DNA of 64,000 nucleotides from Eledone cirrhosa (lineage: Eukaryota): contig OZ024765.1 in the NCBI GenBank assembly GCA_964016885.1, positions 3,534,001-3,598,000 of the forward strand. The letters run 5' to 3'. This document shows, piece by piece, positions 3,039-31,596 of the stretch. The position numbers and the translations under genes are program-made. Every line of letters begins with the position of its first letter. The first letter of the stretch is position 1. Under the pieces are notes generated by a model. The model did no database searches and was not told where the DNA came from. It worked only from the letters and a program-made list of their open reading frames with translations.

Positions 3039-3591
3039 TTATGTGTGTCTGTGTTTATACGTGGTGTGGATGTAGGTGGCGTGGTTCGAAAAAGAATCTG
3101 ACTGTTTGTTCGTGGGTAAGTTCCTAAGATAGTTCCGTGGAGTGTGCGATAAGATGTTGGATATTTCTCATGTTATAAAGTGGATAGTTGGAACGATGAC
3201 CGGTGGTGTGAAATCCATTTGTGGTGGTGATGCGGAAGTGGAGAGATGTGGGGGTGCGCGCGCAATAGGAAGTGGTCAGAGGGTCAAGGCAGGGTGAAGA
3301 GATAGCAGTAGAGGAGAATGACAGGTGAAGAAATGGTCTGTATGTGGTGAAGACGGAGGTGCGGTGGACAGGGGAGAGGGATGGGTTGGTGTGAAAGGTG
3401 GAGGGGGAAGGTGGTGATGTCGAGGGATGGGGTGTATATTAGTGGAGGTGTTATGGGATGTGTGTGTGTGCGTGTGTGAAGAGGTGTAAGTGGAGCGGGG
3501 AGAGAGAGAGAAAAGGTGTTGGTGACGGAGCATATATATATATACATATATATAATATATAAGATCAAAAGATGGTTAAAAGAGTTCCATG

Positions 3592-3662
3592 TATTTTATT
3601 ATGCGCATTTCAAAAACAAATATCATCATGCGATGACATTTGCGTTTTCGTCAGATAAAATA
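3592..3662 (-). ncRNA. Type I hammerhead ribozyme, family A
   Basis: Reverse complement of the 3735-3805 motif. Confidence 0.85.
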
Positions 3663-3734
3663 GGGAGGCATGATATGAAGGTTAAAAAACTGCACTATTC
3701 ATAAGTGTTTTTTAACCTTCATATCATGTCTTCC

Positions 3735-3805
3735 TATTTTATCTGACGAAAACGCAAATGTCATCGCATGATGATATTTGTTTTTGAAATGCGCATAATA
3801 AAATA
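3735..3805 (+). ncRNA. Type I hammerhead ribozyme, family A
   Basis: TATTTTAT-CTGACGA-[stem II AAACGCAAATGTCATC/GATGATATTTGTTTTT]-GAAA-T(GCGC)A-TA^ATAAAATA. Perfect 8-bp stem I, AUA triplet. Confidence 0.88.
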
Positions 3806-3928
3806 CATGGAACTCTTTTAACCATCTTTTGATCTTATATATTATATATACTCCAGTCCTACAAGATGTAGAGTGCTACTTATCCGATATCTGCATTGCT
3901 TTATTGTACTACAATAAAACTCACCTCC

Positions 3929-12813: not shown

Positions 12814-12859
<46 letters not shown>

Positions 12860-12889
12860 AGATCAAAAGATGGTTAAAAGAGTTCCATG

Positions 12890-12957
12890 TATTTTATTAT
12901 GCGCATTTCAAAAACAAATATCATGCAATAACATTTGCGTTTTCGTCAGATAAAGTA
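12890..12957 (-). ncRNA. Type I HHR, family A (single arm)
   Basis: rc CTGACGA...GAAATGCGCATA^ATAAAATA, next to (TA)n. Confidence 0.78.
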
Positions 12958-13064
12958 GGGAGACATGATATGAAGGTTAAAAAACACTTGTGAATAGTGC
13001 AGTTTTAAATCAACATATGAAAAGTAGTTTTAGATTGATGAGTGATATTGGGGAAAAAAAAAAA

Positions 13065-16421: not shown

Positions 16422-16822
16422 GTAGGAGGTGAGTTTTATTGCAGCACAATAAAGCAATGCAAATATCGGATAAGTAGCACTCTACAGTTTGTAGGATTGG
16501 AGTATACATAATATACAAGATCAAAAGATGGTTAAAAGAGTTCCATGTATTTTATTATGCGCATTTCAAAAACAAATATCATCATGGGATGATATCTGCG
16601 TTCTCATCAGATAAAATAGGGAGACATGATATGAAGCTTAAAAAACACTTGTGAATATGTTGATTTAAAACTTCACTGCTCGCAAGTGTTTTTTAAGCTT
16701 CATATTATGTCTCCCTATTTTATCTGATGAGAACGCATATATCATCCCATGATATTTGTTTTTGAAATGCGCATAATAAAATACTTGGAACTCTTCTAAC
16801 CATCTTTTGATCTTGTATTATA

Positions 16823-16825
<3 letters not shown>
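16422..16825. mobile_element. Palindromic family A element; HHRs at 16548-16618 (-) and 16716-16783 (+)
   Basis: Inverted arms, each with CTGATGA...GAAATGCGCATA^ATAAAATA. Confidence 0.8.
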
Positions 16826-16860
<35 letters not shown>

Positions 16861-27075: not shown

Positions 27076-27395
27076 ATTGTCTATCTATCTATCTGTCTGT
27101 ATCTGAGCTACCCCCATTGCGGCCCACTGAGCCATATCTGGTGGCACACCAAAGTGCCGCGAGCCCTTCGTTAATACATCATTCAGCAGGTGAACGTCTG
27201 ACACAGATAATGTAAACCGGAAGACACTTGATGCTGGTGTCAACATCCGTTTCCGGATATGAGCAGGATTTGCATCATGGCTGCTTTCATTGTCCTTAGA
27301 ATGTCATCATTGGAACAATAGATCTAATTGTCACCCTAGAAAAACGGAGACGGTCAACCATCCTTTATTTCATAACACACTGTGTGTGTGTGTGT

Positions 27396-27770
27396 ACTAG
27401 CCGAATTACCCGCGCCTTGCTGCGTTTCACACATTCTGTGTAAGAAAATGATGATTGATTTTAAATCAGTGATATAATTTATGAAGAAAAACTCCATTAG
27501 GGTGTCTTAATATTATTGAAATTTGCTTAAATTTTGTGAATAGGCATCATATCTTGTCATTTACCTATGGTTTAAATTTCATATAAATCGAAGGGAACAC
27601 ATTTTCAGCGGGGGTTTGTGCCCTGGGGGAACCCTTTGATTAAAATGAAATATACTTATCCAAGGACCCTGGACAATGTAGTTTCAGAATATATATGGTT
27701 ATAGGGGTCTATCTCCAAAACCATAGGAGGAGTTTTTGAACAAACAAACAAACAGGAACTACAACTTTAT
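27396..27770 (-). mobile_element. Non-autonomous Helitron-like element (left arm of large palindrome)
   Basis: One end is a GC-rich near-hairpin followed by CTAG-T; the other carries (CAAA)n. Architecture recalls Lep1/DINE-like rolling-circle elements. Confidence 0.55.
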
Positions 27771-27792
27771 ATATATATATATATATATATAT

Positions 27793-28312
27793 GTAGGAGG
27801 TGAGTTTTATTGTAGCACAATAAAGCAATGCAAATATCGGATAAGTAGCACTCTACAGTTTGTAGGACTGGAGTATAAATAATATATAAGATGAAAAGAT
27901 GGTTAAAAGAGTTCCAAGTATTTTATTATGCGCATTTCAAAAACAAATATCATCATGGGGTGATATCTGCGTTCTCATCAGATAAAATAGGGAGACATGA
28001 TATGAAGTTTAAAAAACACTTGTGAGCAGTGAAGTTTTAAATCAACATATCAACATATGTTGATTTAACACTTCACTGCTTACCAGTGTTTTTTAAACTT
28101 CATATCATGTCTCCCTATTTTATCTGATGAGAACGCAGATATCACCCCATGATGATATTTGTTTTTGAAATGCGCATAATAAAATACTTGGAACTCTTTT
28201 AACCATCTTTTGATCTTATATATTATTTATACTCCAGTCCTACAAACTGTAGAGTGCTACTTATCCGATATTTGCATTGCTTTATTGTACTACAATAAAA
28301 CTCACCTCCTAC
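27793..28312. mobile_element. Full palindromic family A element; HHRs at 27919-27989 (-) and 28116-28186 (+)
   Basis: About 250-bp inverted arms, centre near 28050. Confidence 0.82.
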
Positions 28313-28324
28313 ATATATATATAT

Positions 28325-28702
28325 ATATAAAGTTGTAGTTCCTGTTTGTTTGTTTGTTCAAAAACTCCTCCTATGGTTTTGGAGATAGACCCCTATAACC
28401 ATATATATTCTGAAACTACATTGTCCAGGGTACTTGGATAAGTATATTTCATTTTAATCAAAGGGTTCCCCCAGGGCACAAACCCCCGCTGAAAATGTGT
28501 TCCCTTCGATTTATATGAAATTTAAACCATAGGTAAATGACAAGATATGATGCCTATTCACAAAATTTAAGCAAATTTCAATAATATTAAGACACCCTAA
28601 TGGAGTTTTACTCCATGAATTATATCACTGATTTAAAATCAATCATCATTTTCTTACACAGAATGTGTGAAACGCAGCAAGGCGCGGGTAATTCGGCTAG
28701 TA
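28325..28702 (+). mobile_element. Non-autonomous Helitron-like element (right arm)
   Basis: Ends ACGCAGCAAGGCGCGGGTAATTCGGCTAGT; inverted copy of 27396-27770. Confidence 0.55.
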
Positions 28703-28735
28703 TACACACACACACACACACACACACATGTATAT

Positions 28736-28786
<51 letters not shown>

Positions 28787-28890
28787 TCGGGGAACATTCC
28801 CAGTCAGGCTTCCTGTTGTTTTAATCAAACCTATATATATATATGAAGCGGTATATTGGTATCCGGCCTACTTATATTTACATTGAAGTG

Positions 28891-29014
<124 letters not shown>

Positions 29015-29019
29015 CACAC

Positions 29020-29220
<201 letters not shown>

Positions 29221-29378
29221 AATATAACAGGAGGCTGGACTTGTGTAAATCCTTGAAAAGTTTATTATACTCTGACCATTTCAATGACTGGAAGATGCTA
29301 GAAGCTGGGTCGTCCTCCGGTCTATGATTTTAAGCCCCATGGATTTTATCTGTTACATGCATTTATTATATTTCGAAT

Positions 29379-31558: not shown

Positions 31559-31596
31559 GTCTTAACGTTTCGGACACTAGTCCTTCATCAGAAGAC
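31559..31596 (-). ncRNA. Minimal type I HHR, family F
   Basis: rc GTCTT-CTGATGA-AGGAC(TAGT)GTCC-GAAACGTT^AAGAC. Confidence 0.8.

Follow-up and report, generated by a model that had tools for sequence, protein, structure and literature searches.

A near-perfect palindrome of 1.34 kb lies within a 64,000-nt stretch of the Eledone cirrhosa genome (assembly GCA_964016885.1, contig OZ024765.1, positions 3,534,001 to 3,598,000; hereafter, the window), in which the 3′ end of a likely Penelope-like element (PLE), termed here family A, and an adjacent dispersed repeat, termed repeat B, are present twice in mirror image. All positions are window coordinates unless a locus is named. The arms were found by an inverted-repeat search and then aligned globally over their full length; they span 27381 to 28050 and 28055 to 28716 and are separated by 4 nt. 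The search delivered them as an outer pair (27381 to 27787 and 28310 to 28716; 407 nt, 99% complementary) and an inner pair (27776 to 28050 and 28055 to 28329; 275 nt, 98% complementary), bearing out the palindrome announced in a preliminary description made from the sequence alone. The order of parts given there, i.e., (TG)n, repeat B, (TA)n, family A, center, and mirror image, is likewise what the sequence reads. The left arm opens with a (TG)7TA microsatellite (27381 to 27396), followed by the left copy of repeat B on the minus strand (27397 to 27767; 371 bp, ending in ...CGGCTAG-3′), a (TA)12 tract plus TGTA (27768 to 27795) that joins B to the family A tail and corresponds to the usual landing site of family A, and the last 255 nt of the family A element on the minus strand (27796 to 28050), with its 83-nt tail at 27796 to 27878. 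The CAAC spacer (28051 to 28054) marks the symmetry center. The right arm comprises family A on the plus strand (28055 to 28309; tail, 28227 to 28309), a TAC(AT)n tract (28310 to 28329) that is 8 nt shorter than its left mirror, the right copy of repeat B on the plus strand (28330 to 28700), and an outer end of TATA(CA)12 (28701 to 28728), after which TA-rich microsatellite follows. A hammerhead-like motif is located in the right arm (28116 to 28186, plus strand) and, as its mirror, in the left one (27919 to 27989, minus strand). Microsatellite tracts were delimited on the sequence and the arm alignment, and both repeats were delimited by family searches and comparison with other copies.

Global alignment of the arms revealed 10 substitutions (27394, 27480, 27484, 27487, 27665, 27816, 27893, 28021, 28024, and 28036) and a single length difference of 8 nt, corresponding to (TA)4. 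The arm differences quoted in the preliminary description are thus present, and their use there as an argument against a read artifact is reasonable. Three of the substitutions (27480, 27484, and 27487) are clustered within 8 nt, and three others (28021, 28024, and 28036) lie no more than 30 nt from the center. Derived changes number three in the left arm and six in the right one. The palindrome lies in the interior of a 23.8-Mb contig of the 3.0-Gb genome, and its left and right surroundings are unlike each other. We regard it as confirmed as a real DNA structure. On the left, CACAC precedes (TG)7, so that the tract flips from (CA) to (TG) at 27380/27381. The neighborhood consists of TA/CA microsatellite that serves as a landing site for several repeat families, and a (TA)n tract, very long and almost pure, extends just to the right of the palindrome (28870 to 29230).

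Repeat B belongs to an older dispersed family, for which two genome searches returned 2832 and, with a wider query, 4286 first-look candidates; the best 40 of each were scored. Pairwise identity is ∼90% among 28 copies from outside the window, and copies are flanked by TA on both sides. The 3′ end reads CTAG followed by TA in 23 of the 28 copies and in both window arms, which fits the CTRR end of Helitrons next to a host T. At the 5′ side, where Helitrons begin with TC next to a host A, TC (GA on the printed strand) follows an internal (TA)4-5 in 9 of the 28 copies, and the others, including those of the window, run into pure (TA)n. The last 56 nt form only two small stems (−7.2 kcal/mol; z, −1.56), which is weak for the GC-rich hairpin that Helitrons carry some 10 to 12 nt ahead of the 3′ end. 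From its termini, repeat B is possibly Helitron-like, as first proposed, a label that is unproven.

The two window copies of repeat B are 98.9% identical (4 of 371 sites differ), whereas, in the best 40 of each search, the closest copy from elsewhere reached 94% (2832 candidates) and 91 to 93% (4286 candidates). The proposed duplication stands, since the two copies are closer to each other than to the rest of the scored family. Against the 28 other copies, they have at least 13 substitutions and 2 indels private to the pair and are therefore sisters rather than independent family members. Together, the shared private variants and the 98.9% identity indicate that host DNA was duplicated in inverted orientation along with the element. 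Separate insertions of A and B in each arm were also considered and are ruled out by the private variants common to both arms. No third sister copy was found in the assembly among the best 40 of the 4286 and the best 40 of the 2832 candidates. As already stated in the preliminary description, other family A copies lack B: it was found at none of 68 other family A loci, nor at three further family A sites within the window. When 72 tail-side flanks were compared, only those of the two window arms matched collinearly (98.8% over 404 nt).

Public read data, comprising unitigs of three runs from one sample and restriction site-associated DNA sequencing (RAD-seq) reads, were used to assess copy number, with the reservation that thousands of family copies obscure the depth over A and B. 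The junction between the left flank and repeat B (27108 to 27410) is present in the unitigs, and the flank itself (27108 to 27380) is single copy by unitig depth. An 81-nt unitig exactly matching 27572 to 27652, which carries B variants private to and shared by the two arms, has a depth of 11 versus 3.95 for the adjacent single-copy flank unitig (run X15), indicating at least two copies in that sample.

Family A was searched for genome-wide, yielding more than 1393 first-look candidates, of which 40 were scored. It is an abundant and young family, with scored copies 96 to 98% identical. When both arms served as the query, all 40 loci scored were head-to-head pairs, with arm ends and centers read at 37 distinct fetched loci plus 13 earlier ones. 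In 37 of the 40, the pair is one-tailed, i.e., one arm comprises positions 1 to 255 and the other positions 255 to 84, which leaves the 83-nt tail on a single side; the remaining three, the window among them, are two-tailed, a figure biased by the query. One-tailed pairs are perfect inverted repeats with spacers of 0 to 16 nt. In the loci printed, position 1 of family A is in every case directly adjacent to (TA)n or (TG)n(TA)n, and both outer ends of the pairs sit in (TA)n, sometimes in (TG)n(TA)n. Past position 255, most copies run on into common sequence, for at least 1.7 to 2.1 kb in L068 to L071. Three other family A sites occur in the window (16425 to 16829, 3547 to 3928, and 12843 to 13018), of which two are one-tailed pairs arranged head to head and one is a solo piece (family A positions 79 to 255). 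Two candidate observations on arm structure were discarded. The A/T difference at family A position 83, tried as a diagnostic of long versus short arms, is merely the first (TA)n base past the short-arm end. A presumptive full-length element of 1660 nt, bounded by 177-bp terminal inverted repeats and giving rise to derivatives by internal deletion, was abandoned, as L040 proved to be mirrored in its interior, so that such loci are head-to-head pairs with unequal truncation points.

Pair centers vary across loci, being spacerless in nine of them and otherwise CAAC, its complement GTTG, or other sequences; since they differ between loci, the junction was probably formed afresh at each insertion. 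The CAAC center of the window recurs in L062, L072, L093, and L099. At 37 distinct loci (38 pairs fetched; L064 to L067 and L072 to L105), the center read relative to the tailed arm is CAAC, GTTG, or spacerless, in a flip/flop-like manner. The two arms of a pair are closer to each other than to other copies, with a median within-pair distance of 0.025 versus per-locus medians of 0.049 to 0.096 (39 pairs). The arm-to-arm distance of the window in the family A core, 0.024, is close to that within-pair median, and its two arms share private changes (G at family A position 165 and an AT insertion at positions 86 to 87).

The other two-tailed palindromes are those of L062 (1468 to 2043; G000:C7:73912637-73913146), centered on CAAC as in the window, and L063 (1405 to 2098; G000:C4:22854467-22854968). 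The latter is bordered by mirrored compound microsatellites of ∼96 nt per side, one being (TA)n(TG)10 and the opposite one (CA)6(TA)n. In both loci, mirror symmetry ends within microsatellite, and the window is the only one of the three two-tailed cases among the 40 loci in which it reaches into nonmicrosatellite flank. A separate mini-element, a perfect spacerless palindrome with 73-nt arms (99% complementary) flanked by TA, lies nearby in L063 (1133 to 1278); palindromic mini-elements of this type recur near family A and B copies, next to TA tracts, in L009, L016, L035, and L038.

A 549-amino-acid open frame in the sense of the element, P0001, was found upstream of family A in L071 (1367 to 3013, minus strand), ending 1366 nt before the element end (position 1). 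P0001 matched no Pfam family even at an E value of ≤10 and no PDB chain. It has seven homologues (E values from 1e-49 to 9e-83), and Pfam GIY-YIG was matched by four of the eight sequences in their joint alignment (best E value, 5e-4). The language-model clusters nearest to P0001 carry RVT_1, GIY-YIG, and HTH_animal. Motifs readable in the protein include VYECKV, YFGST, and a Cys-rich segment, which we take to be GIY-YIG-like. A long Asn/Ser-rich stretch ahead of this end recalls the asparagine-rich inserts of rotifer Penelope frames (PMC3846280).

Endonuclease-bearing PLEs are characterized by an inverted copy truncated at its 5′ end, a tail confined to one side, a target that is AT rich or (TA)n, and a hammerhead located in the terminal repeat (PMC8557442, PMC3846280, and PMC11167929). 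Family A resembles such insertions in its head-to-head 3′ ends, hammerhead motif, tail on one arm in 37 of the 40 pairs, (TA)n target, and upstream frame with relatives carrying GIY-YIG. On the strength of the pairs, the one-sided tail, the target, and the motif, we read family A as the likely 3′ end of an endonuclease-bearing, PLE-like element, support for its reverse transcriptase part being indirect. Differences are that its tail measures 83 nt rather than the 30 to 40 nt reported previously (PMC8557442 and PMC11167929) and that both arms of the window palindrome are tailed, unlike those of the known one-tailed insertions.

In the right arm, the hammerhead-like motif is built from helix I (28116 to 28123 and 28179 to 28186; 8 bp, UAUUUUAU / AUAAAAUA), CTGATGA (28124 to 28130), helix II (28131 to 28166; 13 bp with one mismatch), and GAAA (28167 to 28170), i.e., the CUGAUGA and GAAA cores of the RNA, followed by the palindrome AUGCGCAU. 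In DNA, the palindromic ATGCGCAT occupies 28170 to 28177, and the predicted cut falls after 28178, with A at the predicted site. In the RNAfold centroid, helix I (8 bp) and helix II (3 plus 10 bp) form with both cores single stranded, at an energy that does not stand out (z, −0.85). Of 41 family A arms, 29 retain an intact motif, and breaks are mostly CpG changes in ATGCGCAT. Metazoan PLEs have been described to carry minimal type I hammerheads in their terminal repeats (PMC4209133); these combine CUGAUGA and GAAA cores with an extended helix II and a palindrome suited to dimers, whereas helix III is not stable. The family A motif shares with them the cores, the long helix II, the lack of a stable helix III, the palindrome, and the terminal-repeat location, but it closes helix II with a G-U pair in place of the conserved G10.1-C11.1 pair, and Rfam detected no hammerhead, either at gathering score over the whole window or at an E value of ≤10 over 27300 to 28800. 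The ribozyme claimed in the preliminary description is accordingly retained as a readable hammerhead-shaped motif with both predicted helices but does not gain recognition by Rfam. On its sequence and modeled fold, the motif matches a candidate minimal hammerhead of the dimer type. Our own hammerhead descriptor misses it on account of the helix II mismatch. At gathering score, the window matched no Rfam family of any kind. The microRNA-model matches returned by Rfam over 27300 to 28800 (E value of ≤10) are of a generic hairpin type and far below thresholds; they reflect the palindrome, not a gene. A second compact minimal hammerhead motif, from another family, lies at 31564 to 31591 on the minus strand (GTCTT CTGATGA AGGACTAGTGTCC GAAA CGTT AAGAC); palindromic ACGT replaces helix III in it, and the descriptor gave no matches in 200 mononucleotide shuffles.

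Ordinary priming on element RNA cannot place repeat B in both arms, so that either copying back along the target strand or a read-through RNA has to be invoked. The reading that we favor, with a probability of roughly 0.4, is a head-to-head insertion of the PLE 3′ end into (TA)n, the second arm of which arose when the complementary DNA (cDNA) folded back, primed its own copying, and ran through the 83-nt tail into ∼450 bp of host flank. With one strand of the (TA)n target as the primer, the element RNA would have been reverse transcribed as far as about position 255; the cDNA 3′ end, terminating in the self-complementary ATAT, would then have snapped back; DNA-templated synthesis would have copied the cDNA and its tail and thereafter the attached target strand through (TA)n, repeat B, and (TG)n; and the new end would have been connected, within microsatellite sequence, to the opposite side of the break. 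Since head-to-head palindromes are the normal form of family A insertion, the fold-back most likely belongs to insertion and not to later break repair. The two-tailed palindromes of L062 and L063, which end in mirrored microsatellite, are what would be expected if copying back overran the tail. The age also fits an event at insertion, as the arms of the window are about as distant (0.024) as those of ordinary pairs (0.025). The fold-back or hairpin route put forward in the preliminary description hence fits best, with the amendment that it is placed at the insertion itself rather than in a later break repair. Neither arm is distinguishable as the original.

Self-priming has been proposed for PLE palindromic junctions (PMC3846280). 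[quoted passage not shown] The two cases are alike in that an inverted copy joined at the cDNA end is expected. They differ in that the R2 work used an engineered system in ribosomal DNA, whereas the product in the window would stem from a natural, fixed PLE insertion into microsatellite and would reach much farther into the flank. Several points weigh against this reading. Copying during insertion and later fold-back repair are not separable by sequence. The switch from (CA)3 to (TG)7 at 27380/27381 looks like a new left junction, and a (CA)n(TA)n target fits the RNA-borne insertion of the whole palindrome equally well. Copying ∼450 nt into duplex flank would need strand displacement by the PLE enzyme. 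The other two two-tailed loci allow more than one reading, given that their symmetry stops within microsatellite, and P0001, the putative product of the element, itself has no Pfam match at an E value of ≤10. Finally, no read or contig in the public unitigs and RAD-seq data spans the palindrome center or its right junction, and the private-variant unitig, at ∼2.8 times single-copy depth, leaves room for a third, unassembled copy.

Two other routes would also place B in both arms, and we consider each of them unlikely. The stronger contender is a later palindrome-driven repair or replication template switch, in which a one-tailed pair (1 to 255 and 255 to 84) beside B would have provoked a break or stalled a fork through its hairpin, and the 3′ end of the short arm, folded onto the long arm, would have been elongated across the tail, (TA)n, B, and (TG)n and then rejoined in the microsatellite. 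Substrates abound, one-tailed pairs being perfect inverted repeats with spacers short enough to form hairpins, and the end product would be the same as that of copying back at insertion; moreover, the 3 of 10 arm differences close to the center are of a pattern that processing of a hairpin tip could leave. That inverted repeats can seed fold-back inversions is well documented for yeast and for human cells: a broken 3′ end folds on an inverted repeat and is extended, and the adjacent sequence becomes duplicated in inverted orientation. The window shares with these events the inverted duplication of adjacent sequence from a folded 3′ end, but they usually yield large duplications or dicentric chromosomes, whereas the window copy is of 450 bp, rejoined at once, and lies beside a retroelement that itself makes the seed. 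Later repair further requires a second, independent event, and the arm divergence at the median of ordinary pairs argues that the copy is no younger than a typical insertion. The rather improbable second route is the read-through 3′ transduction also raised in the preliminary description. Here, a family A copy upstream of B would have been transcribed through (TA)n, B, and (CA)n, the RNA reverse transcribed from at or near its 3′ end, and the cDNA doubled head to head by snap-back or two-strand priming, such that both arms, B included, would be new at the site. The junctions CACAC|(TG)7 on the left and (CA)12|TGTATATA on the right would fit a (CA)n(TA)n target, and the unitig depth allows for the third copy that this route calls for. 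A donor locus, however, did not emerge from the genome search that the preliminary description had suggested: there is no third sister B (best nonself copies, 91 to 94% among the best 40 of 4286 and of 2832), B is missing from the 68 other family A loci, and no two loci share a tail-side flank. 3′ transduction by L1 elements, in which flank is carried along with the retroelement, predicts exactly such a donor, and L1 twin priming, by which insertions can hold inverted segments, inverts a different, upstream part of the RNA, whereas the window mirrors the same part plus its flank.

In favor of this transduction route, PLE transcripts normally run past the internal reverse transcription start sites, weak priming from the RNA 3′ end has been seen in vitro (PMC11167929), and read-through transcripts with simple-repeat flanks have been invoked for PLEs (PMC3846280). 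PLEs use two internal start sites that bracket the tail, with both target strands cleaved and extended (PMC11167929). Against the route, transduction would need initiation far downstream of the two start sites used at the other loci examined. That the palindrome is instead an artifact of assembly or library preparation, i.e., a fold-back chimeric molecule built into the contig, seems very improbable. Tandem and inverted PLE structures are known to trouble assemblies (PMC8557442), and the center and right junction are the places that no public read or contig crosses. Arms differing at 10 sites and in the lengths of two microsatellites, an internal position in a 23.8-Mb contig with dissimilar sides, a private-variant B unitig above single-copy depth, and two further two-tailed loci, one of them (L062) with the same CAAC center, all stand against it.

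With the copy-back at insertion as the preferred reading, the locus would preserve a natural trace of PLE self-priming and represent a rare variation on an established mode of insertion; the event itself is a lone relic of neutral appearance in a region rich in repeats. Head-to-head, one-tailed PLE insertions are already known, whereas a mirror symmetry reaching ∼450 bp into host DNA is, among the loci compared, seen only at the window and is not described in the available portions of PMC8557442, PMC3846280, and PMC11167929, no literature search having been aimed at this feature. Two ideas have been offered for the inverted ends of PLEs, namely, self-priming (PMC3846280) and a mechanism in which both target strands are cleaved and extended (PMC11167929). 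The mirrored unique flank makes this question testable at a single locus with population or outgroup data. It also points to retroelement insertion as a route to a 1.3-kb near-perfect host palindrome, a structure that may be fragile and could yield hairpin RNA. As a tentative generalization, PLEs may build their mirror-image insertions by cDNA self-priming, with overrun copying making inverted host duplications and two-tailed palindromes as the telltale products. If this is true, PLEs would steadily supply microsatellite-rich animal genomes with natural kilobase-scale palindromes of host DNA and with loci that form hairpins.

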